DNA of 64,000 bases from an uncultured Thermotogae bacterium (GCA_964572855.1 CAZNGF010000001.1:14099-78098), one strand, 5' to 3'. Positions 28,883 through 64,000 are shown, counted from the first letter of the stretch. The notes: generated by a model from the sequence alone, not told the origin. Numbers and translations are program-made.

Positions 28883-30073
28883 ATGAGCAACCGCTGGATC
28901 TGGGCTCTGGGCGTGTTGCTGGTGCTGGCCGCCGGGGCGGTGTTCATTTGGTTCCAGCCGCGCCCGAGCGCGGCGGGCAACGGCACGCGCGTGCTCGTGC
29001 TCGGCCTCGACGAGGTCGAGGGGCGCAGCCGCAGCGACATCATCATCGTGGCCCAGGCGAACGAGGACGGGGTCCAGCTCGTCTCGATCCCGCGCGACCT
29101 GCGGGTCAAGTTCCCGGACGGCCAACTGCGCAAGGTGAACGCGGCCTACTCGCTGGGCGGCGTCGCGCTGGCGCGCGAAGTCGTGGCCGGCTTCCTGGGC
29201 GTCGAGCTCCCCTACTACGCCGTGGTGGACTACGACGGCTTCGAGACCGTGGTCGATCTGTTGGGCGGGGTCGAGCTCGAGGTCGAAAAGCGCATGGTCT
29301 ACGAGGACCAGGCCCAGGGGCTCGAGATCGACCTGGAGCCGGGGCTGCAGACGCTCGACGGCGCGCAGGCGCTCCAGTACGTGCGCTACCGCGATGAGAC
29401 GGGCGACCTGGACCGCATCAACCGGCAGCAGAAGCTGCTGCGCGCGCTGCTGGCCAAGGAGTCGGTCCAGCTCGAGGCGCTGGGCACGGTGCGCTCGCTG
29501 TTGGAGATGGCCTTCCAGCACGTCGAGTCGACCAACCTGCTGCTCACCGACCTGCTGGGGATGGCCGGCCGCTTCCAGGGATTGGGTGCTGATCAGGTGT
29601 CGATGCACCAGCTGGGCGGCGAGCCGATCCAGGTCGCGGGCGTGAGCTACCTCGAGCCCAACGCCGTGCGGGCGGCCGCCACCGTGGAGCGCTACCTGCG
29701 CGGCCGGGAGGTCCTGTTGCGCAGCGACGTCACCGCGGTCGTGCTCAACGGCAACGGGGCCAGCGGGCTGGCCAGCCAGCTCCAGGCACGCCTGGAGGGG
29801 CGGGACTTCCGCGTGATCGAGGTCGGCAACGCCGAAAACTTCGAGTACCTGAACACGCTGGTGATCGCCAACGACGGGGGGGATACGGCGCGCGCCACCC
29901 TGGTGCACCAGGCGCTCGGCGGCGTGGGACGGATCGTACCCGCCGAGGAGGTCGCCGACCACCTGGAGGCGATCCGGGCCTGCGGGGGGCCGTGTCGGAT
30001 CGATGACCCCGCCAACCTGGACCGGGCCGACGTGATCCTGATCGCCGGGCTCGACTATCCGACGGAAGAGTGA
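28883..30073 (+). CDS. LytR-CpsA-Psr (LCP) family protein with LytR_C domain
   Basis: A TM anchor followed by an LCP core (VLVLGLDE...RSDIIIVAQ...VSIPRDL) and a C-terminal LytR_C domain. Confidence 0.85.
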   Translation: MSNRWIWALGVLLVLAAGAVFIWFQPRPSAAGNGTRVLVLGLDEVEGRSRSDIIIVAQANEDGVQLVSIPRDLRVKFPDGQLRKVNAAYSLGGVALAREVVAGFLGVELPYYAVVDYDGFETVVDLLGGVELEVEKRMVYEDQAQGLEIDLEPGLQTLDGAQALQYVRYRDETGDLDRINRQQKLLRALLAKESVQLEALGTVRSLLEMAFQHVESTNLLLTDLLGMAGRFQGLGADQVSMHQLGGEPIQVAGVSYLEPNAVRAAATVERYLRGREVLLRSDVTAVVLNGNGASGLASQLQARLEGRDFRVIEVGNAENFEYLNTLVIANDGGDTARATLVHQALGGVGRIVPAEEVADHLEAIRACGGPCRIDDPANLDRADVILIAGLDYPTEE

Positions 30074-30522: not shown

Positions 30523-31754
30523 TCTGTCCGCCTCGGATCAGAGGCATCCGGATTTGGTCTTTGAAAAGTGAATAGAGTGTGCCGCAAGCGCAGTAAGGGC
30601 ACGTGGTGGATGCCTTGGCAGATGGAGGCGATGAAGGGCGTGGTAGGCTGCGATAAGCCGCGGGGAGCCGCCGAACAGGCTTTGATCCGTGGATGCCCGA
30701 ATGGGAGCACCCGCACCGCTGAAGGCGGTGGATCCAGGGCCGAAAATCTCAAGTAAGCTCTGGAGGCCAACCCGGGGAAGTGAAGCATCTCAGTACCCGG
30801 AGGAAGAGAAATCAACCGAGATTCCCCTAGTAGCGGCGAGCGAACGGGGAAGAGCCCAAACCCGATGTGCGCCAAGAGTGCAGTCGTTGCTCATCGGGGG
30901 TTGTAGGACGGCCCGTAAGGTCCCTGCATGGACCTTGAGGAGTTACAAACGCATCCTTTAGTTGAACGGCCTGCAAAGTCACTGGAAAGGGCGACCGGAG
31001 AAGGTGAAAGTCCTGTAAGCGAAAAGGGATGCGCTCCTCGTGGCTGGACCTGAGTAGCGTCGGACACGAGAAATCCGGCGTGAAGCTGGGAGGACCACCT
31101 CCCAAGGCTAAATACTCCCATCTGACCGATAGTGAACTAGTACCGCGAGGGAAAGGTGACAAGAACCCCTGACGGGGAGTGAAATAGAACCTGAAACCAC
31201 GTGCTTACAGACAGTGGAAGGGCCAAGGTCTTTTCGCTTCGGCGAATCGACCAGCCTGACCGCATGCCTTTTGCATTATGATCCTGCGAGTTATCGTATG
31301 TGGCAAGGTTAAGCCTCACTGGGGCGGAGCCATAGTGAAAGCGAGCCTGAATAGGGCGTGGAGTCACGTGCGATAGACCCGAAGCCGAGCGAACTAGCCA
31401 TGGCCAGGTTGAAGCACATGTGATAGTGTGTGGAGGACCGCACCGGTGGACGCTGAAAAGTCCTCGGATGAGCTGTGGTTAGCAGTGAAAAGCTAGACGA
31501 GTCTCGGTGATAGCTGGTTCTCCCCGAAATATATTTGGGTATAGCCTCAGGCATCGAAGCAAGCGGGGGTAGAGCACTGGTTGAATGCGGGGCAACCCAA
31601 TTTCAGTCAAACTTCGAATACCGTTTGTGAATTCCTGGGAGTCAGTCTATGGGGGATAATCTTCATGGACAAGAGGGAAACAGCCCGTAACCGCCAGCTA
31701 AGGTCCCCAAGTTTAGGCTAAGTGAAGAAGGATGTGCGATTGCTAAAACAGCTG

Positions 31755-31800
<46 letters not shown>

Positions 31801-32602
31801 CCACCAGTCTAGTGGTTGTGCGCCGAAGATGAAACGGGACTCAAGCCTAACGCCGAAGCTGCGGGCTCGGACCGCCTGCGGGCGGACCGAGCGGTAGGGG
31901 AGCATTCTGCAGTAGGATGAAGTCGGCCCGTGAGGGTCGATGGACGAGGCAGAAGTGAGAATGCAGGAATGAGTAGCGCGAGCTGAATGAGAAATTCGGC
32001 CACCGATTGCCCAAGGTTTCCTGGGGAAGGCTTATCCTCCCAGGGTTAGTCGGTCCTAAGCTGAATCCTTATCGGAGTAAGCGATGGACAACGGGTTAAT
32101 ATTCCCGTACCTCCGGTTGTGCGTTATCAGCAAAGGGGTGACGCTGTGGGCTGTACCGAGCGGGGTAACGGTTATCCCCGTGCAAGCGCCAAGGCGTCGG
32201 ACGCCAGGAAAATCCAGCGTCCGGTTAAGTCGAGGCGTGATGCGGAGGACCTAAGGGTCCGAAGGAAGGTAAGTCTGGAGCCAAGAAAAACCTCTAGCGA
32301 GTGCATCCGGAGACCGTACCGCAAACCGACACAGGTAGGCAGGTAGAGGATACCAAGGTGGACGAGATAACCCCTGTTAAGGAACTCGGCAAGTTGGCCC
32401 CGTAACTTTGGAAGAAGGGGTGCCTCTTGCGAAAGAGGCCGCAGTGAATAGGCTCTGGCGACTGTTTATCAAAAACACAGGATCCTGCTAACTCGAAAGA
32501 GGACGTATAGGATCTGAAGCCTGGCCACTACCGGAAGGTCAAGGGGAGGTGTGCAAGCACCAAACTGAAGCCCCGGAGAAGGCCGGCCGTAACTATAACG
32601 GT

Positions 32603-33279
32603 GGTTTTTGCTGCCGAAAACGGCCGTTGCAAAATCTAGCCATATGCTGGGACGGCTCACGTATCCCGATGCTACCGAGGAGGTTACAATGCATGGGCGG
32701 AGCTAATCAGCAGGAAAGGCTATCCGAGCACGAAACCAAATGGTTCCTTGCGGGTTTCATCGAAGGCGAGGGAAGCCTGTGTGTCTCGATCAAGGCGCAT
32801 CCCACCGCCAAGTTTGGGTACTATGTGGACCCGGAGTTCTTCATCTACCAACACAAGAGCGGGGTATCCGTTCTTAAGTTGGCCCAAGAGATCTTCGGGA
32901 CCGGAAGCATTCATCCCAAGCAGGGCAACGAGGATGTGCTGGTCTACGCGATCACGAGTCGGCGTAGCTTGAGAGAGCGGGTCATCCCTTTCTTTGAAAC
33001 CTACATGGTCTTGTCTGCAAAGCGCGATGTCTTTGAGAGATTCAGGGAGATCGTGATTGCCATGGAAGATCGCAAGGAGCATTTGACCCCTGATGGCTTG
33101 GCGCGCATCGTCGAGCAGGCGTATGCGATGAACCCGGCGAGTAAGGGGAAGCAACGCAAGCGTTCGTTGCAAGAAGTGACGGATAGAATCCTCAGAGGCC
33201 ATACGCTAGACCTCTCCCTCGAAGCGGGAGAGTGAAGAGATGGTCCGATCTTTGCAGCGATGCAAAGCTAACACAAATG
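32603..33279 (+). mobile_element. Intron in the 23S rRNA at the I-CeuI site (E. coli position 1923, helix 69/71 region); probably a group I intron
   Basis: The exon junction ...GGCCGTAACTATAACGGT | intron | CCTAAGGTAGCGAAATTCC reconstitutes the universal 23S sequence and the 26-bp I-CeuI recognition site. The 5' exon ends in U and the intron ends in G, as in group I introns. It contains a LAGLIDADG ORF. Confidence 0.8.
32693..33235 (+). CDS. LAGLIDADG homing endonuclease (single-motif, I-CeuI-like) encoded within the 23S intron
   Basis: The ATG at 32693 is preceded by GAGGAGG. The motif KWFLAGFIEGEGSLCVSI is a LAGLIDADG-type catalytic helix. The protein is about 181 aa. The track ORF from 32549 extends upstream into exon 1. 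Confidence 0.85.
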   Translation: MGGANQQERLSEHETKWFLAGFIEGEGSLCVSIKAHPTAKFGYYVDPEFFIYQHKSGVSVLKLAQEIFGTGSIHPKQGNEDVLVYAITSRRSLRERVIPFFETYMVLSAKRDVFERFREIVIAMEDRKEHLTPDGLARIVEQAYAMNPASKGKQRKRSLQEVTDRILRGHTLDLSLEAGE

Positions 33280-33317
<38 letters not shown>

Positions 33318-33628
33318 GCGCATGAATGGTATAACGACTGGAGCACTGTCTCAACAGGGGGCTCGGTGAAATTGAACTGCCGGTGCAAATGCCGGCAACC
33401 CGCGGTAGGACGAAAAGACCCCGTGGAGCTTTACTGGAGTTTGGCATTGGGGCTTGATGCATTTTGTGTAGGATAGGTGGGAGCCTTTGAAGCCGGGGCG
33501 CTAGTCTCGGTGGAGGCGTCCTTGAAATACCACCCTTTATGTATTGGGTCTCTAACCTAGCGTCGTGAAGAGCGGCGCGGGGACCGTGTTAAGCGGACAG
33601 TTTGACTGGGGCGGTCGCCTCCTAAAAA

Positions 33629-33661
<33 letters not shown>

Positions 33662-33785
33662 GTTAGCGATCAGCCATTGAGTGTAAGGGCATAAGGGAGC
33701 TTGACTGCGAGACCCACAAGTCGAGCAGGTGCGAAAGCAGGCCCTAGTGACCCTACGGCTTCTGTGTGGAAGGGCCGTGGATCAT

Positions 33786-33816
<31 letters not shown>

Positions 33817-33875
33817 AGTACCGCCCGAGAGTCCACATCGACGGCGGTGTTCGGCACCTCGATGTCGGCTCATCT

Positions 33876-33906
<31 letters not shown>

Positions 33907-34316
33907 CGTCTGTTCGCCGGTTAAAGAGGTACGTGAGCTGGGTTCAGACCGTCGCAAGACAGGTCGGTCCATATCCGCCGTGGGCGCAAGAAGCTTGAGA
34001 GGTTTTCTCCTCAGTACGAGAGGACCGGGAGGACCGGACCGCTGGTGTACCAGTTGTCCCGCCAGGGGCACCGCTGGGTAGCTATGTCCGGACAAGATAA
34101 GCGCTGAAGGCATCTAAGCGCGAAGCTTCCCTCGAGACAAGGCTTCTTAGACCCCTCCGAGACCAGGAGGTTGATAGGCCACAGGTGTACGCACGGTAAC
34201 GTGTTCAGCCGAGTGGTACTAATGGTCTATTGCTTGCACTATGCACACTCTATTCACTTTTGAGGGACCAAGTCCCCCGACTTGAAATTCGGCCCGCCAG
34301 GGGCGGGTCCACGGAC

Positions 34317-34434
34317 TTCAGGTGGCCATAGAGCAGGGGAAACACCCGTTCCCATCCCGAACACGGCAGTTAAGCCCTGCTTCGCCGATGGTACTAAGCT
34401 CGTAAGGGCTTGGAAGAGTAGGTTGCCGCCTGGA
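34317..34434 (+). rRNA. rrf: 5S ribosomal RNA
   Basis: GGTGGCCATAGAGCAGGGGAAACACCCGTTCCCATCCCGAACACGGCAGTTAAGCCCTGCTTCGCCGATGGTACT...GAGTAGGTTGCCGCC matches the bacterial 5S consensus and lies about 75 nt downstream of the 23S gene. Confidence 0.9.
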
Positions 34435-50052: not shown

Positions 50053-50053
50053 A

Positions 50054-50263
50054 TCAATCGAGCTTCAGCACGCGGAGCTCCTGCGGGTTTTTGGCGCCCT
50101 GCAGCAACTCGAAGCGGATGACCCCGTTGATGGACACAACGTTTCGCTCCAAAGATGCCTTCAAGTGGGCCTTGAGGCGTTCGTAGCCTATGCGCTGAAA
50201 ACTCGCGATCCACGCCGACGTGTCCACAAGAATGAGCTCAGCGGACGCGGATTTAGCGTTCAT
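50054..50263 (-). pseudogene. Truncated VapC (PIN) toxin: N-terminal half only
   Basis: The 69-aa reading frame starts ELILVDTSAWIASF, a PIN N-terminus with its first Asp. It stops where it meets the secA 3' end, and the remaining PIN acidic residues are absent. Confidence 0.55.
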
Positions 50264-50465
50264 CCCGGACGCGCTCTAACTCGGCCAAGTCCATGCCGTG
50301 TTCGTAGTGGCCGATCATGTCGTGCAACTCCTGACGCCGCTTGAGCTTGACGTACGCCTCCAAGGCGGTGTGAATCGCCCGTTTCTTGGTACGGCTACCG
50401 CTCAGCTTCATGACCAGCTCGACCAGTTCCTCATCGAGCTCGAGCGTGGTGTGCACAAAAACCAC
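50253..50465 (-). CDS. vapB: VapB-family antitoxin (Rv0623-like)
   Basis: 70 aa, MVFVHTTLELDEELVELVMKLSGSRTKKRAIHTALEAYVKLKRRQELHDMIGHY.... An AT-rich operator-like stretch (ATTATGCATTATG) lies upstream. Confidence 0.7.
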   Translation of the reverse strand: MVFVHTTLELDEELVELVMKLSGSRTKKRAIHTALEAYVKLKRRQELHDMIGHYEHGMDLAELERVRDER

Positions 50466-50577
50466 CTCTCATTATGCATTATGTTGATAGTAATTCTTGT
50501 GCTTGTCAAGGCTGGCACACGCAGGGGCGCGAGTTCATAACAACCGGGAGCTGTTCTGACCCCGCCGGCCAGGCGAC

Positions 50578-52014
50578 TCAGGGATAGAGCCGGTGGATCT
50601 GGCGCGGGAACGGGATGCACTCGCGCAGGTGGGCCACGCCTGTGATCCAGGCCACGGTGCGCTCGATCCCGAGGCCGAAGCCCGCGTGCGGCACCGAGCC
50701 GTAGCGGCGCAGGTCCAGGAACCACTCGTAGGGCGCCTTGGGCAGGCCGTGCGCCTCGATCTTGCGTTCGAGCACTTCCAAACTGACCGCGCGCGCGCTG
50801 CCCCCGATGAGCTCGCCGTAGCCCTCAGGCGCGATCAGATCCGCGTTCAGGACCCGCTCGGGGTTGTCGGGGTCGGGCTCCATGTAGAACGGCTTCATGT
50901 CGGCCGGGAACTTTTCGATGAACACGGGCCGGCCGAAGTGATGGCCCAGCGCCTCCTCGTGCGGCGCGCCGAAGTCGTCGCCCGCACTCATCTTGAGTCC
51001 ATGTTCGCTGGCGATTTGCTCGGCCTCGGCTGGGGTGAGCTCGGGCGGCGCGGCCTCGTCGCCCCCCTCGCTCTCGCTGGTGCGCTCCTCGTCGTCGGCC
51101 TGGCCGCGGCGCTGCGCCCACTTGGCGGCCATGAAGCGCACGAGCGCGTCCGTGTTCAGCAGGTCGATCGCCTCGTCGTAGCTCACGCGCGCGAAGGGCT
51201 CGTCCACGACGCGCTCCAGCGCGGCGCGCTCGCGGCCCAGCGCGTCGAGCTCGGGGGCCTTGTGCTCCAGGGCGCGTGCGATCACGTACTTGACCAGTTC
51301 CTCCTGCAGCGCCAGGTTGTCGTCGTGCCCGTAGTAGGCCATCTCGCCTTCGGCCATCCAGAACTCGGTCAGGTGTTTGCGCGTCTTGGAGAGCTCGGCG
51401 CGGAAGGCCGGGCCGATCCAGTAGACGCGCCCCAGCGCCATGGCCGTGGCCTCCAAGTAGAGCTGGCCGCTCTGCGACAGGTAGGCCTTGCGCTCGAAGT
51501 AGGGGGTCTCGAACAGCGTGGTCGTGCCCTCGACCGAGATCGGGGTCAACAGCGGCGCCTCGGTGGCCACGAAGCCCTTTTGGTGGAAGAAGTCGCGGAT
51601 GGCCTGCATCACCTCGTGGCGCACGCGCAGCAGCGGGACCTGCTTGGCCGAGCGGATCCACAGGTGGCGGTGGTCCATCAAAAAGCCCGCCCCGTGCGGC
51701 TTGGGCGAGATGGGGTATTCGTGGGCGACGTGGACGGGTTCGACCTCTTCAAGCTCGAGCTCGTAGCCGCTGGGCGCGCGCGCGTCGGCCTTCACCGTGC
51801 CGCGCACGATGAGCGAGGACTCCTGCGTGAGCCCTTTGGCCGCCTCGAAGGCCGCCTCGTTGCCTTTGGTCACGACGCCCTGGATGATCCCGGTCCCGTC
51901 CCGCACGAGGAGAAAGGCGATCTTGCCGCTCTCGCGCTTGCGATACAGCCAGCCGCGCAGCTCGACGCGCCGGCCCTCGTGGGCCCCAATGTCGACGATG
52001 TAGGTCTGTTCCAT
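50578..52014 (-). CDS. asnS: Asparagine--tRNA ligase
   Basis: Class IIb aaRS with an OB anticodon domain. Motif 2 is GPAFRAELSKTRKHLTEFWMAEGEMAY (AsnRS type, not AspRS) and motif 3 is GFGLGIERTVAWI. It carries an acidic insertion of about 45 aa. Confidence 0.85.
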   Translation of the reverse strand: MEQTYIVDIGAHEGRRVELRGWLYRKRESGKIAFLLVRDGTGIIQGVVTKGNEAAFEAAKGLTQESSLIVRGTVKADARAPSGYELELEEVEPVHVAHEYPISPKPHGAGFLMDHRHLWIRSAKQVPLLRVRHEVMQAIRDFFHQKGFVATEAPLLTPISVEGTTTLFETPYFERKAYLSQSGQLYLEATAMALGRVYWIGPAFRAELSKTRKHLTEFWMAEGEMAYYGHDDNLALQEELVKYVIARALEHKAPELDALGRERAALERVVDEPFARVSYDEAIDLLNTDALVRFMAAKWAQRRGQADDEERTSESEGGDEAAPPELTPAEAEQIASEHGLKMSAGDDFGAPHEEALGHHFGRPVFIEKFPADMKPFYMEPDPDNPERVLNADLIAPEGYGELIGGSARAVSLEVLERKIEAHGLPKAPYEWFLDLRRYGSVPHAGFGLGIERTVAWITGVAHLRECIPFPRQIHRLYP

Positions 52015-52184: not shown

Positions 52185-52213
52185 TTGACTTGGGAAGCAA
52201 GTTAGGCTATGTT
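52185..52213 (+). promoter_or_regulatory. Putative promoter of the lipoprotein gene: TTGACT, 17-nt spacer, TATGTT
   Basis: Near-consensus -35 and -10 boxes with 17-nt spacing, about 80 nt upstream of the ATG at 52292. Confidence 0.45.
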
Positions 52214-52216
52214 TGC

Positions 52217-52250
52217 TTCATCTCATCTCATCTCATCTCATCTCATCTCA
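52217..52250. repeat. Pentanucleotide microsatellite (TCTCA)6 in the 5' UTR of the lipoprotein gene
   Basis: ttcaTCTCATCTCATCTCATCTCATCTCATCTCA is six perfect units plus a partial unit. It lies between the -10 box and the Shine-Dalgarno (AAAGGAG). Confidence 0.9.
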
Positions 52251-52291
52251 AGTTCGGTAGTTGCGGTCCTTGAGGGAGCGAAAGGAGCGGC

Positions 52292-55060
52292 ATGCACGGG
52301 CTCGAGCGTCGGGTCGTGTGCGGGTTGGCGTTGCTGTTGGCGCTGGGGGCGTTGGCGGGGTGCGCGCAGTTCTCGGGGTGGTTCCGGGACGCGCCCGAGG
52401 GGGTGGCGGCCTCGTTCGAGGGGAGCTACGCCTGGGAGATGCTGGGGGTCGAGCGGGGCAAGCAGCCCCAGGCCTGCGGCGCGGCGCTGGGGGCCCAGGC
52501 GGCCAAGGCCAAGGCGCAGGAGCTGCTGAGCCGGATGCGCGAGGCCCAGCAGTTGCAGGCGCTGCTGGGGGCGCGGGGCAAGCCGCTCAAGCTGGGCAAG
52601 GCGGCGGCCTGCCGGGTCAAGCGCGACCAGCCGAAGCGCGGACGCGGGGTGGCCTTGCAGGACGGCGGCCCAACCGGCGAGGAGGAGATCGGCACGCTGG
52701 TCGAAATCCCGGCCGGCAGCGACGCGGCGCTCTACCTGGCCGAGGTGTATGATGAGGGCGAAAGCTGGGCCTCGATCAAGGAGGTCGACCCCGAGGGCGA
52801 GCGCCTGGTGCAAATCGAGACGCTCGTGCCCGAGGACTACGATCTGGAGCCGGAAGGGGAGCTGAGCGTGGGCGAGGTGCCTTGGTTCCTGCCGGGCGAG
52901 ACGGGCAGCGGCGAGTTGATCGCCGAGGTGCTGGAGGGGCTGGCCGAGGCGGGGCCGGAAGGGTGGGTGTTCCGGCCGGCGGCGCTGGCCGAAGCCGATC
53001 CGGCGTACCTGGCGTTTGCGCAGGAGGCCAGCGACCCGGAGCTGGACTGGAGCCAGGCGGACGCGATCGTCGACGAGGAGAGCGAGGAGTTGGTGTTGTT
53101 CGTGCCGTCGGCGGGGGCGGTGGCCGCGGGCGAGGCGTTGTGGGGCTCGCGGTTGAGCTTCCTGGACGACGGCCATTCGCTAGCGGTGCGGGCGCCGGTG
53201 CGGCGCGTGACCCGGCCCGCGACCAACACGCAGCGCTGGACGGTGCAGCGCAACACGACCACGCAACGCCCGACAATCCGCAGCACGATCCGGACGCGCC
53301 ACCTGCCCCAGCCGTTTGGGTTGTGTCCCTACCAGCACTACGGCCGCCTGTCACGGGCCAAGAAAGCGCTCTGCAACACGTGGGAACAGAGGCATCAGCC
53401 CAAGGTCAACCGGGTCAAGTTCAAGTCGGCGAAGAAGAACGTGCGGGAGACGAGCCAAAAGACCGTGCAAACGTTGAATGCCAACGCCAGCGTGATCGGC
53501 TTGAGCGGCAAGAACGCCAACCTCGTGTTGGCCGGCTTCAAGGACGTCTCACAGGAGCGGATCGACAAGTTCTATCAGGAAGCGGCCCGCGCGGCGGCGT
53601 CAGGGGCCAACCAGACCAACGGCCTGCTGAGGTTCCCCTTCATCGCGGACAACGATCGGTTGCCGGATGACCGGCTCTCGCCGCCGGAAGACACAATTTC
53701 GACAGCGGTCAATGCGACGTGCTCGTTTGCCAGTGACTTGATTGGCCAAATTACACGTGTAGGGGAAAATACGATTGATGCTATCTGCTTCATTCTGGGC
53801 GAGATGAACGGTTGGCGAGAAGTCCAATCTGTGCAAGAACAAGCAGACTTACGTGAAGGAATAAATAGAATCGCAAGTCAAGCTTTTGGTGTAGAGGTGT
53901 TTACATTAGGCGATATAGAGAAACGCATTTTAGGGATAGAAAATGCAGGTCTTTCTTCAGATGAAAGGCAACAGGTCAACAGCTTCCTCGGTCAATTGGA
54001 ACAACTGTTACAGCAACAGATGGGAACAGAATCCCTGGAGGCAAGCAAAGTATTGGCTACAGCGCTGTTTGGGTTGAGACAAGCATTTCGTGCTTCTCAT
54101 ACTGAAGCTGATGCAATCGGGAACGGTCAGCTCTTCGTCAAAAGCATGATCGACGAGATGGGCCCAGAGCTGTTCTTGATGATTCACTTCATGCAACAAG
54201 CAACTTCAGAACTGACTTGGAATATCAATGCCGACTGGGAGCGCCATATCCCTGTGCAGGACTTCGCTACGTTGGGGAAGTTCCTCGACATGCTCAAGAG
54301 CAAAGACATCATCAACACGGACAACGCCGTCAAGCTGATCACATTTGTGGGCGTCTTCTCCCAGCTCGCGCTGGAGAACGGCATGACGTTTGAGGTGAAG
54401 GAAGCGCTGGCCCGCGCGGGTTTCCTGGCCGAACTGGCCGTGGAAGCCCAAGTCGCAGGTTACAATACCGCGCAACAATTTGAGGTGCTCACCGAGATCG
54501 GAGGAGAGTCGGTCGATTTCAAGTTTCAGTCTTTAAAGCTGAGAATAGAAGACAAGACAACGTTTATCACGGGTATCGTGGTGCCTTTCTTGAAAGACGG
54601 GGTCGCAGTCAAGGGGTTGATTGAGAGGATCAAGAAAGTAGACAAGGCGCTTGAAGGCAGCGCAGGGAACGCTCCCCAATTGATCGTCGTGGTCGTCCAA
54701 CAAGCCAGCGAGGCCAATGTGAACGAGTTGTGCGCGGACGTGCGTTCCGGGCGTACGTTTGCGTTCGTGGTGGTCATCGTCAACGGGCGCGTGGCCCTGA
54801 ACGGGACGTGTCACAGCATCGACAGCTCGGTCAATGACAAGCTGCTGGGTTCTGGGCGTGATGGGGGCGATGTAGCCCAAGGGGTCTGTGACCTGGAGGT
54901 CACGCTCTGCGGAGGCGAAACGGACACGTCTTCATCCGGCGGTGGGGGAGCCAGCGCACCGCCGGTGATCGTGAGCCTGCCCCTGCCGCCCGAGGTGCTG
55001 TGTCCGGGAGGCGGCGCGTGCTTGACCCCGGAAGGGAAGAGGCTGTGGCTGGGTGACTGA
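52292..55060 (+). CDS. Large lipoprotein of unknown function; its C-terminal ~330 aa are paralogous to the downstream gene
   Basis: Lipobox MHGLERRVVCGLALLLALGALAGC. The N-terminal half is acidic. The C-terminal module is shared with 55144-56334 (RIAS...SSDER.Q.NSFL.QLEQLLQQ...GQLFV...MGP.LFLM.HFMQQATS.L.WN ... CADVR..RT.AFVVV..NGR...LLG.GR...QVCDLEVTLCG). Codon position 3 is GC-rich except in the 53690-54300 segment. Confidence 0.75.
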   Translation: MHGLERRVVCGLALLLALGALAGCAQFSGWFRDAPEGVAASFEGSYAWEMLGVERGKQPQACGAALGAQAAKAKAQELLSRMREAQQLQALLGARGKPLKLGKAAACRVKRDQPKRGRGVALQDGGPTGEEEIGTLVEIPAGSDAALYLAEVYDEGESWASIKEVDPEGERLVQIETLVPEDYDLEPEGELSVGEVPWFLPGETGSGELIAEVLEGLAEAGPEGWVFRPAALAEADPAYLAFAQEASDPELDWSQADAIVDEESEELVLFVPSAGAVAAGEALWGSRLSFLDDGHSLAVRAPVRRVTRPATNTQRWTVQRNTTTQRPTIRSTIRTRHLPQPFGLCPYQHYGRLSRAKKALCNTWEQRHQPKVNRVKFKSAKKNVRETSQKTVQTLNANASVIGLSGKNANLVLAGFKDVSQERIDKFYQEAARAAASGANQTNGLLRFPFIADNDRLPDDRLSPPEDTISTAVNATCSFASDLIGQITRVGENTIDAICFILGEMNGWREVQSVQEQADLREGINRIASQAFGVEVFTLGDIEKRILGIENAGLSSDERQQVNSFLGQLEQLLQQQMGTESLEASKVLATALFGLRQAFRASHTEADAIGNGQLFVKSMIDEMGPELFLMIHFMQQATSELTWNINADWERHIPVQDFATLGKFLDMLKSKDIINTDNAVKLITFVGVFSQLALENGMTFEVKEALARAGFLAELAVEAQVAGYNTAQQFEVLTEIGGESVDFKFQSLKLRIEDKTTFITGIVVPFLKDGVAVKGLIERIKKVDKALEGSAGNAPQLIVVVVQQASEANVNELCADVRSGRTFAFVVVIVNGRVALNGTCHSIDSSVNDKLLGSGRDGGDVAQGVCDLEVTLCGGETDTSSSGGGGASAPPVIVSLPLPPEVLCPGGGACLTPEGKRLWLGD

Positions 55061-55143
55061 GACGGCGCTGCTCTGCGCGCGGGAAGGAGCGCTCTGGCCA
55101 GCGGGCCGGGGCGCTTCGCTCACGGCGTGCTAAGGAAACCAAC

Positions 55144-56334
55144 ATGAACAGGCCAGGGCAACAGCAGTGGGTGTTCATTGTGATCTTGGTGATATTGGCG
55201 TTGTGGATGTTGAATGACATAACTGTTTGGCAGGGAAGACAGCAGGTTAGAGATCAGTCAGATCTGCGTGACGCATTATTTAGAATTGCAAGTGCAGCAC
55301 TTGCTGTTGCAGATATCACTAGAGAAGATATTGAGGAGCGGTATTTAGGAGAAGCTAGGTGGGTTTCCTCAGATGAAAGGCATCAGTTAAATAGTTTCCT
55401 TATTCAATTGGAGCAATTGCTTCAGCAGGAGTCGACAACCAAAAACCTAGAGGCAAGCCAGGTATTGTCTGGCACCTTGTTGGGGTTAGGCCAGGCATTT
55501 CGTGCTTCTCATGCTGAAGCTGATGCGATTGTAAACGGTCAACTCTTCGTTGAGAATTTACTCGACCCCATGGGCCCGGGGCTGTTCCTGATGCTGCACT
55601 TCATGCAGCAAGCGACCTCGCAACTCGCTTGGAATACCAACAGCACCGACTGGGAAAGCTACATTCCCGTACAAGACTTCGCCGCGCTGGGGACGTTCCT
55701 CAACATGCTCAGGAACGAGACCACGATCAACACGGACAACGCCGTCGCGCTCCTCTCGCAGGTGGGCCGCTTGTCCCAGCGCGCGCTGGGAGAGGGACCC
55801 ACGCCTCAGATCAAGCAAGCGCTGGCCCGTGCGGGCTTTCTGACCGAACTGGCTGTCGAGGCCCAAGCCGCGGGTCTGAGGACCAGCTGGGACTTTGCGG
55901 TCTTGGGCGAGATCGAAGGCGAGCCGCTCGACTTCACGCTCCGCTCGCGCCGCTTGGTCGCGGGCGACGAGCCCACGCCCGTCGCAGGGCTGGTGCAGCC
56001 CGCCCTGGTCGATGAGGCCGGGGCCCAGGCGCTGTGGGCACGGATCAACGCAACGGACAACGCCCTCCGCTCCAAGCGCGCGGCCGACCTGCTGGCCGTG
56101 CTGGTGGCGCAGGCCGGGGAGGCGTCGCTCGCGGCGCTGTGCGCGGACGTGCGAGCCCAGCGGACACACGCCTTCGTGGTCGTCGTGGCCAACGGGCGCA
56201 CGGCCTGCCACAGCGCCCAAAGCACGGCGGATGCCAAGCTGCTGGGCGCCGGGCGCGCCCGAGCCGAGCTGGCCCAGCAGGTCTGCGACCTGGAAGTCAC
56301 GCTCTGTGGGAATGAAAGAACCGTTGGTCGTTGA
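55144..56334 (+). CDS. Membrane-anchored paralog of the C-terminal module of the upstream lipoprotein (unknown function)
   Basis: 396 aa with an N-terminal TM anchor (WVFIVILVILALWML). It is co-linear with the module of the 52292-55060 protein and ends with the same QVCDLEVTLCG motif. The first ~420 nt are markedly AT-rich. Confidence 0.75.
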   Translation: MNRPGQQQWVFIVILVILALWMLNDITVWQGRQQVRDQSDLRDALFRIASAALAVADITREDIEERYLGEARWVSSDERHQLNSFLIQLEQLLQQESTTKNLEASQVLSGTLLGLGQAFRASHAEADAIVNGQLFVENLLDPMGPGLFLMLHFMQQATSQLAWNTNSTDWESYIPVQDFAALGTFLNMLRNETTINTDNAVALLSQVGRLSQRALGEGPTPQIKQALARAGFLTELAVEAQAAGLRTSWDFAVLGEIEGEPLDFTLRSRRLVAGDEPTPVAGLVQPALVDEAGAQALWARINATDNALRSKRAADLLAVLVAQAGEASLAALCADVRAQRTHAFVVVVANGRTACHSAQSTADAKLLGAGRARAELAQQVCDLEVTLCGNERTVGR

Positions 56335-56472
56335 GATCGATTGCACGCTGATGTCGCGGTATTATCACGGAGTTAGGGCTGTTGGCGCATAGGAGATGTT
56401 GTGAAATCTCGGAATTGAGCATGGTGCCCAGTGGTGCTGTCCTGGATCAATTGGTCACGGTAGGGGGCTTGG

Positions 56473-57546
56473 TTGCACAGCGAAGCGAGACGGATTCTTG
56501 TCGTCAACACCGGCGGCACGATCATGATGGTGCGCGACGGCGACGATCCCAGCTCGCCCTGGCGGCCCGGGGACTACGCGCGCGTGACGCGGGACTACCC
56601 GGCGCTCTCCGCGCTTCCGTTCGAGCTCACCTTCCACAGCTTCGACCCGCTGATCGACTCCTCGGACATGACCGAGGCCGGCTGGCGCGAGATCGCGGGG
56701 GTGATCGGGCGGCACTACGACCGGGTCGACGGCGTCGTCGTGCTGCACGGCACGGACACGATGTGCTACACGGCCGCGGCGCTCTCGTTCCTGCTCGAAA
56801 ACCTGGGCAAACCCGTCGTGCTGACGGGCGCGCAGCTCCCCCTGATCGTCCCGCGCAGCGACGGGCTGCAGAACTTCGTGACCGCGCTCTGCATCGCGGC
56901 CGGTCTCGACGTGAGCGACGGGGGCGCGCTGCCCCCCCTGCCCGAGGTCTGCATCTACTTCGGCGGCAAGCTGCTGCGGGGCAACCGGGCGCGCAAGCTG
57001 AGCGCGAGCGCCTACGCGGGCTTCGAGTCGCCCAACTTCCCGCCGCTGGGCGCGGTGGGCAAGCGCATCGAGCTCGACGCAAAACGCATACGCCCGCTGC
57101 CTGACGGGCCGTTTCGCGCCGGCTCGGCGCTCGACACGCGCGTGATGACCCTGGACCTGTTCCCCGGTTTCGACCCGGATTGGTTTCAAACCCTGGTCAC
57201 GCACGAGGCCGCCGACGGCCCCGGCGCGCGCGGGCTCGTGCTCAAGACGTTCGGGGCCGGCAACGCGCCCACGAGCCGGCGCTTCCTGGACGCGCTGGCA
57301 TCGGTCCGCGAGCGCGGGATTCCGGTCGTCAACGTGTCGCAGTGCCCGCAAGGAGCAGTCGAGCTCGGGGCCTACCAGGCCAGCGTCGGGATGCTGGAGG
57401 CGGGCGTCATCAGCGGGCTCGACCTGACCCCCGAGGCCGCGCTCTGCAAGCTCATGTGGCTGCTGGGCCGGGGGCTCGATCGGGAAGCGATCGCACGAGA
57501 AATGGGGCGCTCCCAGCGCGGCGAAGGGGGCGCGCCCCCCGACTGA
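56473..57546 (+). CDS. ansA: L-asparaginase, type I (cytoplasmic)
   Basis: A TGGTI catalytic threonine motif near the N-terminus (ILVVNTGGTIMM), HGTDTM, and type-I asparaginase architecture. The start is probably TTG at 56473, with AGGGGG 5 nt upstream. Confidence 0.85.
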   Translation: MHSEARRILVVNTGGTIMMVRDGDDPSSPWRPGDYARVTRDYPALSALPFELTFHSFDPLIDSSDMTEAGWREIAGVIGRHYDRVDGVVVLHGTDTMCYTAAALSFLLENLGKPVVLTGAQLPLIVPRSDGLQNFVTALCIAAGLDVSDGGALPPLPEVCIYFGGKLLRGNRARKLSASAYAGFESPNFPPLGAVGKRIELDAKRIRPLPDGPFRAGSALDTRVMTLDLFPGFDPDWFQTLVTHEAADGPGARGLVLKTFGAGNAPTSRRFLDALASVRERGIPVVNVSQCPQGAVELGAYQASVGMLEAGVISGLDLTPEAALCKLMWLLGRGLDREAIAREMGRSQRGEGGAPPD

Positions 57547-57547
57547 C

Positions 57548-58330
57548 TTAAGCGCTTGAGCCGATGACCTCGATCATCGCCCCGTGCACGCGGCCGTTGG
57601 AGGCCACGATCTCGCCGCGGCCCAGGTCCGGTTTGTGGCCGGCGAAGTCGCTCACGCGCCCGCGGGCCTCTTCGACCGCAAGCGCGCCGGCGGCCACGTC
57701 CCAGGGTTGCAGGTTGAACTCCCAGAAGCCGTCCAAGCGCCCGGCCGCCAGCCAGCACAGATCGAGCGCGGCCGCGCCGTTGCGGCGGATCCCCTGCGCT
57801 TGATGCGCGAAGCGCCCGAACAGCTCCAAGGCGCGCGCCATGCGCTCGCGTTGATACGGGAACCCCGTGGCCAACAGGCTTTCGGACAACGTTCCGATCG
57901 CCGACACGCCGATCGGCTTCCCGTTGAGCGTCGCGCCGCCGCCGCGGGCGGCCACGAACGTCTCGCCCAGGACCGGCGCCTGCACGACGCCCAGGATCGG
58001 CTCGCCGTCGCGCTCGAGCGCGATCGAGACGCAGAAGAACGGGTTGGCGTGCGCGAAGTTGGTCGTGCCGTCCAGCGGGTCGACTACCCAGCGGTAGGGT
58101 GAGTCGCTGCGGCGGTCCACGCCCTCCTCGGACAACACGGCGTGCTCGGGGAAGCGCGCCGCCAGCACGTCCAACACGGCCTCCTGCGCGCGGCCGTCGT
58201 ACTCGGTCAGCAGATCCGTGGCGCTGCTCTTGGTGCGGACGGCGCCGGCCCGGCCGAAGCCGCTCAAGAGCACCTCGCCGGCGCGCGCTGCGGCGTCCAG
58301 CGCCGCTTGTCTCAGAGCGTCCAGGTCCAC
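57548..58330 (-). CDS. Inositol monophosphatase family protein (SuhB/IMPase-like)
   Basis: About 260 aa from a GTG start (VDLDALRQAALDAAARAG...). Motifs WVVDPLDGTTNF and the GRLDGFWEF region are present. The track ORF (348 aa) runs on into surE. Confidence 0.8.
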   Translation of the reverse strand: MDLDALRQAALDAAARAGEVLLSGFGRAGAVRTKSSATDLLTEYDGRAQEAVLDVLAARFPEHAVLSEEGVDRRSDSPYRWVVDPLDGTTNFAHANPFFCVSIALERDGEPILGVVQAPVLGETFVAARGGGATLNGKPIGVSAIGTLSESLLATGFPYQRERMARALELFGRFAHQAQGIRRNGAAALDLCWLAAGRLDGFWEFNLQPWDVAAGALAVEEARGRVSDFAGHKPDLGRGEIVASNGRVHGAMIEVIGSSA

Positions 58331-59085
58331 GCGCGCATCGCCTCCAGCAGCTTCGGGTCGGTGCGGTTCAGGCTCAGCGGCGTGACCGTGACCCAGCCCG
58401 CGTGGAGCCGGGCGTAGTCGCCGCCGTCGTCGTGGTCGTCCAAAATCTTTTTGTGCTCCTTGATCAGCACGCGGCGCCCGTTTTCGGAAGGCCCCCACTC
58501 GAAGTGCGGCAGATAGCGCTGCATGGCCTGGGTGCCGCTCCAGATCCCGCGCACGCGCTCGGGCGGCAGCGCGGGCAGGTTGACGTTGAGGCACGTCCCC
58601 GGCGGCAGCTCCTGCGCGAGCACCTGGTCCAGCACGAGCGCGCTCAGGCGCGCCGCCTCCTCCAGGTCCGGCGCCTCCCCGTCGAGCAACTGCAGCGAGA
58701 ACGCGATCCCGCGGTGCCCCTGCAGCGCCCCCTCGCAGGCCGCCCCGATCGTGCCGGAGTAGAACGCGTCCACCCCCACGTTGGCGCCCAGGTTGATGCC
58801 CGAAACGACCCAGTCCACCTCGCCTTCCAGGAAGAGCGCGACCTTGACGCAGTCCACCGGCGTGCCCGCGACCGCGTAGGCGGGTTGCCGCTGGAACAGC
58901 TCGACCTGGCGGAAGGCGACGGGGCCCCGGTGCGTGAAGGCGTGGCTCGAGCCGCTGCGCTCGGCGTCCGGCGCGGCCACGACCAGCGCGCCGCGGGAGG
59001 CCAGCACCCGCGCCAGCGCGCGCAGGCCGGCGGAGTCGATCCCGTCGTCGTTGGACAACAAAAAACGCGTGCTCATGTGCCTCAC
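58312..59085 (-). CDS. surE: 5'/3'-nucleotidase SurE
   Basis: The FLLSNDDGIDSAGL N-terminal motif gives a full-length SurE. Confidence 0.88.
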   Translation of the reverse strand: MRHMSTRFLLSNDDGIDSAGLRALARVLASRGALVVAAPDAERSGSSHAFTHRGPVAFRQVELFQRQPAYAVAGTPVDCVKVALFLEGEVDWVVSGINLGANVGVDAFYSGTIGAACEGALQGHRGIAFSLQLLDGEAPDLEEAARLSALVLDQVLAQELPPGTCLNVNLPALPPERVRGIWSGTQAMQRYLPHFEWGPSENGRRVLIKEHKKILDDHDDGGDYARLHAGWVTVTPLSLNRTDPKLLEAMRAWTWTL

Positions 59086-59115
59086 TCCGTGTCGTCTGGG
59101 GAATGGGAGAGCGGG

Positions 59116-59853
59116 TCAGCGTCCCAACAAGAGCCGATTATACAGGGATTGGGGCAGATTCGCCTCCCGCACGGCCGGGGCCGCGCGCTCGACGTCGTAT
59201 TCGAGCCGGTGAAAGGTGACGGTCTCCTCGCTCCCGGTTCGCTCGTACACCGCGAACGCCAGGCGCCAATCGCCGTCGCGCGGCTGGCCCACGCTGCCGG
59301 GGTTGAGCAGGTAGCGCGCGTCGGGTTCCAGCGCCAGCGTCTGGCAGCCGGGCACCCCGCCGCCGTCCACGTCGTTGTCCCGTTCGACGAAGACGGTGGG
59401 CACGTGCGAGTGCCCGAACCAGCAGAGCCGCTGCTCGACGTGGCGGAAGCTGAGGTAGGCCGTGCGGCGGTCGGTGACGTATTCCCAGAGGGGATCGCGC
59501 GGGCTGCCGTGCGTGACGAACATGTCGCGATGGGCGGTCTGTGGCGGGCAGCCTTTGAGGAACTCCAGGGACGCGTCGGACAGCTGCGCGCGCGTCCAGC
59601 GGGCGGCCGCCGCGGCCGTGCCGTTGAAGCGTGCCAGCTCGATCTCGCCGACGACCGCCGCGTCGTGGTTCCCCTGCAGGCACAGCTCGCAGCGCGCACG
59701 CACGCGCGCGACGCACTCGTCCGGCCACGGGCCGTAGCCCACCACGTCACCGCAACAGAGGACGGCCTCGACCCCCTGTTCGTCGAGCGCCGCCAGCGCC
59801 GCCTCGAGCGCCGGGAGGTTGCCGTGCACGTCGGAGATGAGGCCGAGCTTCAT
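59116..59853 (-). CDS. Metallophosphoesterase (calcineurin-like, YfcE/MJ0936 family)
   Basis: Motifs MKLGLISDVHGN, GDVVGYG, GNHD and GHSH. Confidence 0.85.
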   Translation of the reverse strand: MKLGLISDVHGNLPALEAALAALDEQGVEAVLCCGDVVGYGPWPDECVARVRARCELCLQGNHDAAVVGEIELARFNGTAAAAARWTRAQLSDASLEFLKGCPPQTAHRDMFVTHGSPRDPLWEYVTDRRTAYLSFRHVEQRLCWFGHSHVPTVFVERDNDVDGGGVPGCQTLALEPDARYLLNPGSVGQPRDGDWRLAFAVYERTGSEETVTFHRLEYDVERAAPAVREANLPQSLYNRLLLGR

Positions 59854-62855: not shown

Positions 62856-64000
62856 TCAAGGTGTCCCCGTGATCGTGATCGTCACGATCGCCGTGGCGGT
62901 GGCGCCGTCGGCGTCCTGGATCATGTAACTGAAGCTGTCCGTGGCCGTCTCGCCCTCGGCTAGGCCCGTGAACTGACCGTTCGGATCGTAGCTGAACGAT
63001 CCGTCGGCGTTGACCGTCGCCTGACCCGTGGTGCCCGAGGTGTCGCTGCCAATGACGATCAGATCGTCGCCGTCGGGATCGTTGTCGTTTGTCAGCACGT
63101 TGCCACTGAGGGGACTGTCCTCGTCCGTGCTTCCGCTGTCGTTGGACGCTATCGGTGCCGGGTTGGTCAGCGTCCAGGTGAACGACGCGCCCACCGTACC
63201 GCCGTTGCCGTCGTTGGCCGTGACGGTCACCGAGTACGGGCTGTTCTGCGAGGTGCTGCTATCGATCGTCCCGCCGATGACGCCCGTGGCCGCATCGATG
63301 CTCAAGCCGGTCGGCAGCCCCGTCGCCGTGAAGCTGAGCGTATCCGAGCTGTCGACGTCGCTGAAGTTGCCGGAGACGTCCAGGTTGACGGAGTCACCGT
63401 CCATATTGGTCTGATCCGAGATGGCGGAGGACGTGGGCGCGTCGTTGGCGCCGGTGATCGTGATCGTCACGGTGGCGGTGTCCATCGCGCCGTCGGCGTC
63501 CTGCACGGTGTAGCCGAAGCTGTCCGTCGCCGACTCGCCCATGGCCAGGTCCTCGAACTGCCCGTTCGGGTCGTAAGTGAACGTGCCGTCGCCGTTGTCG
63601 GTCACCGTCCCCGGCGTGCTCGAGTCGTCGAAGGAGCTGACGCTGAGCGTGTCGCCGTCAGGGTCCGTGTCGTTGTCGAGCACGTTGGCCGTGGTGATCG
63701 CCGTGTCCTCGTCCGTGCTCGCGCTGTCGCCGGACGCGGTCGGGGTCGGGTTGGTCACCGTCCAGGCGAAGCTTTCCGAGGCACTGCCGCCGTTGCCGTC
63801 GTCGGCCGTGACGGTCACCGAGTAGGGACTGTTCTGCGAGGCGCTTGCATCCAACGTCCCGCTGATGACGCCGGTATTGGCGTCGATGCTGAGGCCGGTG
63901 GGCAGGCCGGTCGCGCTGAAGCTGAGGCTGTCGCCGCTGTCGACGTCGCTGAAGTTGCCGGAGACATCGAGATTGACCGACTCGCCGTCCGCGCTCGACT
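62856..64000 (-). CDS. Large repetitive surface protein with cadherin-like/VCBS-type Ig repeats. Partial: the 5' end lies outside the window.
   Basis: Repeats of about 95 aa with the pattern SQNSPYSVTVTA.DGNGG....F.WT.TNP.P....D...TDED....NVL.ND.DPDGD.L...DPNGQF..LA.GE.ATDSF.Y...DADGA...A.VTITITG. The frame continues to the window end. Confidence 0.75.
   Translation of the reverse strand, partial: SSADGESVNLDVSGNFSDVDSGDSLSFSATGLPTGLSIDANTGVISGTLDASASQNSPYSVTVTADDGNGGSASESFAWTVTNPTPTASGDSASTDEDTAITTANVLDNDTDPDGDTLSVSSFDDSSTPGTVTDNGDGTFTYDPNGQFEDLAMGESATDSFGYTVQDADGAMDTATVTITITGANDAPTSSAISDQTNMDGDSVNLDVSGNFSDVDSSDTLSFTATGLPTGLSIDAATGVIGGTIDSSTSQNSPYSVTVTANDGNGGTVGASFTWTLTNPAPIASNDSGSTDEDSPLSGNVLTNDNDPDGDDLIVIGSDTSGTTGQATVNADGSFSYDPNGQFTGLAEGETATDSFSYMIQDADGATATAIVTITITGTP

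Follow-up and report, generated by a model that had tools for sequence, protein, structure and literature searches.

Architecture of the gene pair

The window considered here is a stretch of 64,000 nt of DNA from an uncultured Thermotogae bacterium (GCA_964572855.1 CAZNGF010000001.1:14099-78098). It has a GC content of about 70% and carries, between positions 52292 and 56334, two adjacent genes for paralogous proteins. All features described below lie on the plus strand unless stated otherwise. Gene 1 (52292-55060) specifies a 922-aa predicted lipoprotein, with 5 nt separating an AAGGAG ribosome-binding site from its ATG, and gene 2 (55144-56334) encodes a 396-aa paralogue with a predicted signal anchor. 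Both open reading frames (ORFs) lie where an initial annotation, made from the sequence alone, had placed them, and no extra ORF fits into the 84-nt and 138-nt spacers. The two proteins share a module: by BLASTP, residues 500-876 of gene 1 align with residues 21-391 of gene 2 at 56% identity over 378 aa (E 5e-123), which places the module of gene 1 at residues 500-877 (53789-54922). The initial annotation had correctly seen this co-linear sharing, and every motif block that it quoted recurs in the comparison of the two genes; its estimate of a ~330-aa module falls somewhat short.

The tandem is a real, diverged duplication. An assembly artefact, a possibility raised in the initial annotation, is excluded because the module copies are only 73-76% identical in DNA sequence, without long identical tracts, and because the independent Logan assembly of run SRR7048221 carries the same tandem, reproducing window positions 52384-59241 at 99.985% identity (one mismatch in 6858 nt).

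The N-terminus of gene 1 (MHGLERRVVCGLALLLALGALAG-C24) has the layout of a bacterial lipoprotein, that is, a positive n-region, a hydrophobic h-region and a lipobox of the form [LVI][ASTVI][GAS]C, as judged from sequence and hydropathy. The signal peptide (52292-52363) includes a hydrophobic window at residues 6-30, with Kyte-Doolittle values of up to 2.13, and ends with the lipobox LAGC, read off the sequence, at Cys24; the equivalent lipobox of P0005, a full-length relative described below, is LMGGC (...GVLMGG-C23). The proposal of export made in the initial annotation agrees with this lipobox signal peptide and with the N-terminal hydrophobic segment of gene 2. In the mature protein, residues 24-125 are basic (pI 9.95), residues 126-300 very acidic (pI 4.05) and residues 301-430 very basic (pI 11.5), the last of these blocks with two conserved cysteines; a variable linker, the module (residues 500-877) and a Gly/Ser/Pro tail follow. 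The acidic region and the tail had both been noticed initially, whereas the strongly basic block had gone unmentioned. Together, the acidic and basic blocks (residues 126-430; 52667-53581) form a conserved N-terminal region that is 67% identical to P0005 over 305 residues and has a host-like GC content at third codon positions (GC3) of 0.89-0.91. A structural model of the N-terminal half is unusable, at a predicted local distance difference test (pLDDT) value of 32, and gives no fold.

Within the gene 1 module, residues 500-622 (53789-54157), its first third, are variable and low in GC3 (0.32-0.60), with nonsynonymous (dN) and synonymous (dS) divergences from gene 2 of 0.38 and 1.3, respectively. 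A restriction-endonuclease-like alpha/beta domain is predicted at residues ~700-843 (54389-54820) from homology to the modelled domain of gene 2. The C-terminal part (54884-55057) combines a Cys tail, VCDLEVTLCG (residues 865-874), with a Gly/Ser/Pro stretch and a C-terminal LPPEVLCPGGGAC...RLWLGD motif, which are kept in P0005 and in an orphan fragment of contig L001. Two extra cysteines are located in the Gly/Ser/Pro tail, and mature gene 1 contains 12 cysteines.

Upstream of gene 1, a promoter-like site (TTGACT-17-TATGTT, 52185-52213) was found by consensus scan only; the scan returned four such sites against 0.7 expected in shuffled sequences and provides no evidence of function. A perfect (TCATC) x 6.6 pentanucleotide microsatellite (52218-52250) lies between this site and the gene 1 start, and is a candidate slipped-strand contingency element. 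The repeat belongs to the noncoding 5' leader, since an in-frame TGA (52271-52273) precedes the ATG; this stop codon rules out an N-terminal extension of gene 1 across the microsatellite. Contig L004 lacks the repeat ahead of its gene 1 relative.

Gene 2 consists of the module alone, set behind the sequence MNRPGQQQW and a single hydrophobic helix (residues ~9-29; 55168-55230) with a Kyte-Doolittle maximum of 2.52 over residues 5-31. The MNRPG..W motif and the transmembrane segment are kept in P0003, in P0006 and in both copies of contig L002, and the N-terminus of gene 2 is conserved in five loci. The N-terminal flank preceding the helix is positively charged in gene 2 and carries a charge of +1 to +4 in relatives and, by the positive-inside rule, the protein would adopt an N-in/C-out topology. 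Beyond the anchor come a variable low-GC3 region (residues 30-142; 55231-55569; GC3 0.36-0.56), a conserved helical core (residues 143-245; 55570-55878) with the motifs MGPxLFLMLHFMQQATS, DWE..IPV, N.DNA and LARAGFL.ELAVEA, over which model confidence reaches only 50-70, and a predicted restriction-endonuclease-like alpha/beta domain (residues 221-358; 55804-56217). The Cys tail QVCDLEVTLC (56281-56310) contains C381 and C388. With C333 and C355 (gene 2 numbering) these are the four cysteines conserved in the module throughout the family, and they bear out the conserved Cys-containing tail reported initially. Because of the lipoprotein signal, the signal anchor and the conserved cysteines, both modules are likely to reside outside the cytoplasm.

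The public gene calls of gene 2 (P0001, 254 aa) and of a relative (P0002, 275 aa), made by the NCBI and JGI gene callers, begin at Met143 and thereby lose the anchor and 142 residues. We take the long form of gene 2 to be the real one because of its N-terminus conserved in the five loci, its collinearity with gene 1 and a ratio of dN to dS (omega) of ~0.3 over codons 1-142. A step in GC3 coincides with Met143 and misled both the NCBI and the JGI gene callers to an internal start.

The 84-nt spacer between the two genes contains a 14-bp GC-rich hairpin devoid of a T tract (55086-55117), with an RNA folding energy of -48.3 kcal/mol (z = -2.2). The same hairpin, with wobble-preserving changes, is found in L001, whose spacer is collinear with that of the window. 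Between the window and L001, the spacer preceding gene-2-type genes (window 55058-55143; L001 1679-1789; L005 ~583-620; L002 1-39) is conserved at least as well as the adjoining coding DNA, and could act as a processing or attenuation signal or as a recombination boundary. On contig L005, a 113-nt stretch across the junction between module copies 1 and 2 matches the start of L002 at 89%, and the end of copy 1 apparently reads in frame through window-type spacer sequence. No Rfam family was detected in the locus.

Distribution, composition and rearrangement of the family

An exhaustive phmmer search of 1.84 billion protein cluster representatives with gene 2 as query returned, besides the two window proteins, only P0003 of gene 2 type (383 aa), P0005 of gene 1 type (918 aa), the fragment P0006 and one spurious repeat protein. 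A word-index search added P0002; it never returned gene 1 (P0004) or P0005, both of which were found by the exhaustive search. The family amounts to about five loci among 15 billion predicted proteins and, judged from these searches, is a true orphan of extreme rarity. Scans of both proteins and their relatives against Pfam, NCBIfam, PADLOC and PHROG gave no family match, and the statement in the initial annotation that no known domain could be assigned from sequence stands for these libraries. Sequence-profile searches of the PDB, run for the entire module and for its C-terminal domain, gave no match either, the best scores, to DUF507 (E 0.23) and to a designed NTF2 protein (E 0.46), being noise. 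Patterns based on alignments of the module and of the N-terminal half were run against GTDB representative genomes, JGI metagenome contigs and IMG/VR without recovering relatives; these scans were non-exhaustive and missed the JGI contigs L002 and L005. No relatives were detected by tblastn in plasmid and phage collections. With the N-terminal half of gene 1 as query, the word-index search came back empty and failed to recover even gene 1; its negatives are no evidence of absence for this family.

A second locus, hereafter locus B, is made up of contigs L004 and L001 of ENA sample ERZ869940, which overlap by ~67 nt with one mismatch and are probably contiguous. Its gene order is aldehyde dehydrogenase, P0005, a beta-helix protein with a signal peptide, a 345-nt fragment, P0003, a 137-aa ORF, an S26 signal peptidase and an adenylate-cyclase-domain gene. 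P0005 is a full-length relative of gene 1 (918 aa, 41% identity overall), and the two differ sharply along their length: identity is 67% over residues 126-430 and ~28% over the module, the P0005 module being 27-33% identical, by region, to those of the rest of the family. Identity is lost around residues 430-500, and GC3 declines there as well, from ~0.9 to 0.3-0.6. A conserved N-terminal part followed by an abrupt C-terminal loss of identity is the pattern of polymorphic toxins, observed here in two full-length sequences.

The 345-nt fragment (L001 1334-1678) lies upstream of P0003 and is 59% identical to residues 801-922 of gene 1. It is of gene 1 type (70% identity, versus 49-56% to gene 2 types) and possesses the gene-1-type tail, lacks a start codon and contains an in-frame stop. 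The fragment, the spacer with its hairpin and the start of P0003 are together collinear with the end of gene 1, the spacer and the start of gene 2 in the window, at 77% DNA identity. On the simplest reading, a gene 1 allele bearing another module would have come in together with the beta-helix gene and overwritten a window-like ancestral pair, of which the old 3' end and its partner remain. We also considered that the fragment might be fused to the upstream beta-helix gene and separated from it by a sequencing indel. A single base would suffice, but the fragment begins midway through the alpha/beta domain and carries a premature stop of its own. The region following P0003 (L001 2998-3970) contains the 137-aa ORF, which has no family match, and the small, 181-aa S26 signal peptidase, both likewise low in GC3. 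As a dedicated enzyme, the peptidase might process signal anchors of the conserved MNRPG type; the window has no counterpart of either gene.

Contigs L002 and L005 originate from a Namib salt-pan metagenome (IMG 3300023214) and carry two tandem module copies each, with a gene-2-type N-terminus wherever this end lies on the contig (both L002 copies and copy 2 of L005). The two arrangements are homologous. The first L002 copy is frameshifted; the second L005 copy is interrupted by a premature stop and followed by an element of the IS3 insertion sequence (IS) family (HTH_Tnp_1 and rve transposase ORFs, 942-2220). Decayed copies are thus present in three of the five loci. Displaced C-terminal fragments and spare partner genes, a further trait of polymorphic toxin loci, are represented by the L001 fragment and by the tandem copies of L002 and L005. 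No convincing direct or inverted repeats marking an integration site were found in the flanks.

The locus stands out by its composition, with GC3 values of 0.3-0.8 against 0.92-0.96 in the flanking genes, and appears on this basis as an island in two different chromosomal contexts. GC3 along gene 1 is 0.86-1.0 in codons 1-450, 0.32-0.60 in codons 450-650 and 0.66-0.86 thereafter. All gene-2-type genes of all loci show GC3 of 0.36-0.62 over the first ~150 codons and of 0.8-0.96 beyond, and the P0005 module has a GC3 of ~0.40 throughout. Divergence follows the same partition. Between copies, codons 1-142 (anchor and variable region) show amino acid identities of 0.26-0.54, dN of 0.4-0.85 and saturated dS, whereas codons 143-245 show identities of 0.60-0.82 and dN of 0.10-0.25; gene 2 and copy B of L002 differ by a dS of 0.13 in the 3' part and of 1.4 in the first 142 codons. 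The module is thus a mosaic, in which a variable region that is either old or evolving fast adjoins a conserved remainder that was exchanged recently. Omega is 0.2-0.5 throughout, and both genes are therefore under purifying selection and functional.

Predicted fold and competing interpretations

Gene 2 was modelled with AlphaFold2 from a six-sequence alignment, at a mean pLDDT of 61. Residues 23-146 are helical and unreliable, and pLDDT rises to 77-91 over residues ~260-390. In this model the last ~135 residues take up a restriction-endonuclease-like fold, and it is by predicted fold alone that the C-terminal domain deserves this name. A fold search with the model scored AF1548 at 9.2, N.BspD6I at 8.5, NucS at 8.2, the R.BspD6I small subunit at 8.1, NgoMIV at 7.9, FokI and an XisH-like protein at 7.1 each, Card1 and Can2 at about 7, NucC at 6.6, CdiA-CT of EC869 at 6.5, CdiA-CT of Y. 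pseudotuberculosis at 6.3 and Tox-REase-5 effectors at 6.0. As in the PD-(D/E)xK superfamily, which includes Tox-REase, a Glu on helix 1 (E239, in ELAVEA) and an Asp at the start of strand 2 (D263, in (P/S/T)(L/V)DF) are conserved, and they are invariant in all six module sequences; their placement is taken from the secondary structure of the model and not from a superposition. Further invariant polar residues, namely K224, R229, E260, D305 and H356, leave a non-canonical catalytic site possible. Some CdiA-CT toxins of PD-(D/E)xK fold use non-canonical sites containing His (PMC9086364). The module differs from this superfamily by the two disulfides predicted in it and by its probable extracytoplasmic location.

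We tentatively favor, as possible but still short of an even chance, a reading by analogy with toxin loci in which gene 1 would be a polymorphic exported effector and gene 2 its membrane-tethered, paralogous partner. The reasons are the lipoprotein signal, the conserved N-terminal half joined to a replaceable module, the adjacent partner gene, the displaced and decayed copies, the IS element, the island composition and a predicted fold shared with toxins. The locus would then be a small, horizontally mobile and rapidly rearranging two-gene cassette. The conserved N-terminal ~430-470 residues of gene 1 would act as the carrier or targeting part and the C-terminal module of ~380 residues as the replaceable part, whose fast-diverging region of ~120-140 residues may set specificity ahead of the conserved helical core and the putatively disulfide-stabilized restriction-endonuclease-like domain. 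The gene 2 module, on its N-in/C-out anchor, would face the same extracytoplasmic compartment as gene 1. Restriction-endonuclease-fold domains commonly dimerize, and for this reason we propose that gene 2 may bind the gene 1 module homotypically and hold, neutralize or receive it, in the role of a 'self-mimic' partner for immunity or docking. Recombination would bring in new module alleles, leaving displaced fragments and spare partner copies behind. We infer the interaction, the antagonistic activity, its target and the delivery route alike. The likeness to polymorphic effector/immunity or surface-variation loci drawn in the initial annotation gains from the replaced module, the displaced fragment, the decayed tandem arrays and the island composition, and loses from the nature of the partner, a full paralogue of the module, which is atypical for an immunity gene.

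Two groups of known systems invite comparison. SitA-type lipoprotein toxins need no linked secretion apparatus. The SitA toxins of myxobacteria (sitAI/sitBAI), transferred by outer membrane exchange (OME), share with gene 1 an N-terminal lipobox, a conserved N-terminal region of ~375-450 aa that defines the family, an allele-variable C-terminal domain and, in mobile DNA, a partner gene directly downstream in the operon (PMC8546572). The C-terminal domain of SitA4, SitA6 and SitA7 is a single toxin family with allelic variation (PMC8546572), just as the gene 1 modules are homologous alleles. The differences are that gene 2 is a membrane-anchored paralogue of the module whereas SitI is unrelated and cytoplasmic, that the C-terminal domain of gene 1 is cysteine-rich and lacks a recognizable nuclease motif, and that a LytR_cpsA_psr protein and the unlinked 23S-5S genes of the host give no indication of Myxococcota. 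Neither NCBIfam nor Pfam, whose content of SitA models was not verified, matched the N-terminal half of gene 1. Contact-dependent inhibition (CDI) and Rhs loci resemble the present one by a conserved N-terminal and a sharply divergent C-terminal part, by displaced C-terminal modules (PMC9086364), here the startless 3' fragment followed by the old partner gene, and by IS elements that accompany arrayed spare partner genes within the locus (PMC9086364). They differ in that this locus lacks CdiB, an Rhs core, PAAR and a VENN-type demarcation motif, relies on a lipoprotein signal for export, and carries mutually homologous alleles and a partner homologous to the module. In several of the respects examined the locus behaves as a polymorphic effector locus does; it should not be filed under CDI, Rhs or SitA, because no homology to them was found and because the partner is not the unrelated gene expected of an immunity determinant.

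Several observations weigh against the effector reading. Immunity proteins are normally unrelated to their cognate toxins, and gene 2 is 56% identical to the gene 1 module, keeps every invariant residue and shows no substitution that would mark an inactivated copy. The module alleles are all homologous, unlike the unrelated folds of classic polymorphic toxins, and the gene that follows the replaced module in locus B is not of gene 2 type but encodes the secreted beta-helix protein. Disulfide-rich domains are unusual in toxins that cross a membrane. The fold assignment comes from one AlphaFold model of a six-sequence alignment, and Foldseek searches of the PDB and BFVD returned nothing significant, the best hit being the restriction enzyme EcoO109I (E 0.11). 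The (D/E)xK lysine of strand 3 is absent from all copies (the position opposite D263 reads VQP in gene 2, VVP in gene 1, LQP or VQS in the relatives and VEP in P0005), and neither single sequences nor domain profiles matched any nuclease or toxin family in Pfam, NCBIfam, PADLOC or PDB sequences. The possibility, raised initially, that the module belongs to a characterized family has been realized by half: the model has a known type of fold, without a family-level match and without the (D/E)xK motif. Among 31 window ORFs scanned with Pfam and NCBIfam, about two-thirds of a GC3-based map of ~48 ORFs, no type 5, 6 or 7 (T5, T6, T7) secretion gene or OME gene was found, only housekeeping, regulatory and surface-repeat proteins. 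Finally, with five loci only, the evolutionary inferences are thinly sampled.

The same retention of invariant residues in both gene types would suit a different arrangement, in which the paralogues form a non-antagonistic envelope complex that serves its producer only, in a structural or enzymatic role, as a heterodimer on the outer face of the cytoplasmic membrane or as a bridge between inner and outer membranes. One module on two anchors within one operon, purifying selection on both genes (omega 0.2-0.5) and conserved cysteines fitting a stable extracytoplasmic protein all speak for such a complex, whose gene 1:gene 2 stoichiometry could be set by the conserved spacer hairpin. We nonetheless consider it doubtful, given the extreme rarity and patchy distribution of the family, its island composition and differing insertion contexts, the replacement of modules, and the decayed copies in three of five loci, all of which would be unusual for a housekeeping envelope machine. 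The pair is still less readily seen as assembly or annotation artefacts or dead pseudogenes: the truncation of gene 2 to 254 aa by public gene callers and the decayed copies of other loci lean that way, but this view is already refuted by the divergence of the copies (56% identity in protein, 73-76% in DNA), by the independent assembly that reproduces the arrangement and by intact ORFs with omega of 0.2-0.5, including in the 5' part of gene 2 skipped by the callers, so that its probability is practically nil.

The predicted fold itself would agree with both proteins being active, surface-anchored extracytoplasmic nucleases that break down or process DNA outside the cell, which in hypersaline mats might for instance serve as a nutrient. 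Their PD-(D/E)xK site would be non-canonical, built from E239, E260 and D263, which are invariant and located where the fold has its metal site, and completed by a relocated basic residue or histidine, a role open to the invariant K224, R229 and H356. DNA would be bound by the basic block of gene 1 (residues 301-430, pI 11.5). The His-containing sites of some CdiA-CT toxins offer a precedent (PMC9086364), and at least one relative comes from the Namib salt-pan metagenome. The missing strand-3 lysine and the lack of any profile match to nuclease families run counter to this proposal, and a scavenging enzyme would not be expected to be so rare, to swap modules and to decay so often; we give it a small chance. 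A slim one is left for variable surface proteins under phage or host pressure that form a contingency or exclusion system (phage-receptor decoy, superinfection exclusion or adhesin) subject to microsatellite phase variation. The perfect (TCATC) x 6.6 microsatellite of the gene 1 leader, the fast-diverging low-GC3 region of each module and the frequent loss or decay of copies would fit, but the repeat is noncoding, does not lie between promoter hexamers and is absent from the related locus L004, and searches of phage, IMG/VR and plasmid collections yielded no relatives, nor was there any PHROG match.

Genomic setting and significance

As the initial annotation had stated, the pair sits between asnS and an L-asparaginase gene. 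The upstream neighbor, on the minus strand, matches the NCBIfam asparagine-tRNA ligase model with 511.9 bits (cut-off 414), and the downstream one is asparaginase-like, of type I; beyond these flanks lie SecA, an inositol-monophosphatase-like gene and SurE. The NCBIfam match of asnS (50578-52014, minus strand) falls into two stretches around an acidic insertion of ~50 residues (…QADDEERTSESEGGDEAAPPELTPAEAEQ…), which would fit a halophile-type acidic proteome. The intergenic region between secA and asnS (50053-50577) is unusually long, ~525 nt, and has a GC content of 0.56 against ~0.68 in its flanks.

Further away (30583-34434), the 23S rRNA gene measures 3658 nt relative to a 2925-nt model, the ~730 extra nt being located around 32500-33270. 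Within this insertion lie a 228-aa ORF (32549-33235), whose product has a LAGLIDADG_1 homing-endonuclease domain (E 2.4e-17), and a match to a group I intron that stays below threshold (33003-33267; 19.5 bits, E 0.029). The insertion is probably an intron in a bacterial 23S gene. No 16S or tRNA genes were found in the 64-kb window, an LCP-family gene and a short ORF lying upstream of the 23S-5S unit, and the rRNA genes appear unlinked. Other genes encode an AfsR-like BTAD/NB-ARC/TPR regulator (5496-8531), a LytR_cpsA_psr (LCP) protein with a LytR_C domain (28883-30073) and a cadherin/Big_9 repeat surface protein (62856-63854). The LCP protein hints at a monoderm-type envelope, in which the lipid anchor of gene 1 and the helix of gene 2 would be inserted in the same membrane. 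Together with the unlinked 23S-5S genes, the AfsR-like regulator and the GC content of ~70%, it hints at a monoderm-type or deep-branching lineage rather than at Myxococcota. A comparison of the 23S gene with plasmid-borne rRNA operons was uninformative on taxonomy, all of them being ~70% identical to it.

The significance of the pair depends on the reading. An ordinary envelope complex would be of narrow interest. Whatever the function, this is an orphan family with a predicted restriction-endonuclease-like domain that would be located outside the cytoplasm, and its sharp, conserved intragenic GC3 step misleads gene callers. The fullest version of the effector reading is an unlikely one: it would make the pair an unrecognized effector class, exported by the Sec/lipoprotein route, with a membrane-tethered paralogue of its own module as partner or immunity protein, a disulfide-bonded and catalytically re-wired restriction-endonuclease-like domain, and a region of 120-140 residues that sets allele specificity. 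If the effector reading is true, the family would represent a new solution to toxin immunity, in which protection or docking is provided by a tethered copy of the effector module, and a new lipoprotein-borne delivery architecture outside the myxobacterial SitA families, with at least one relative from a salt-pan metagenome.

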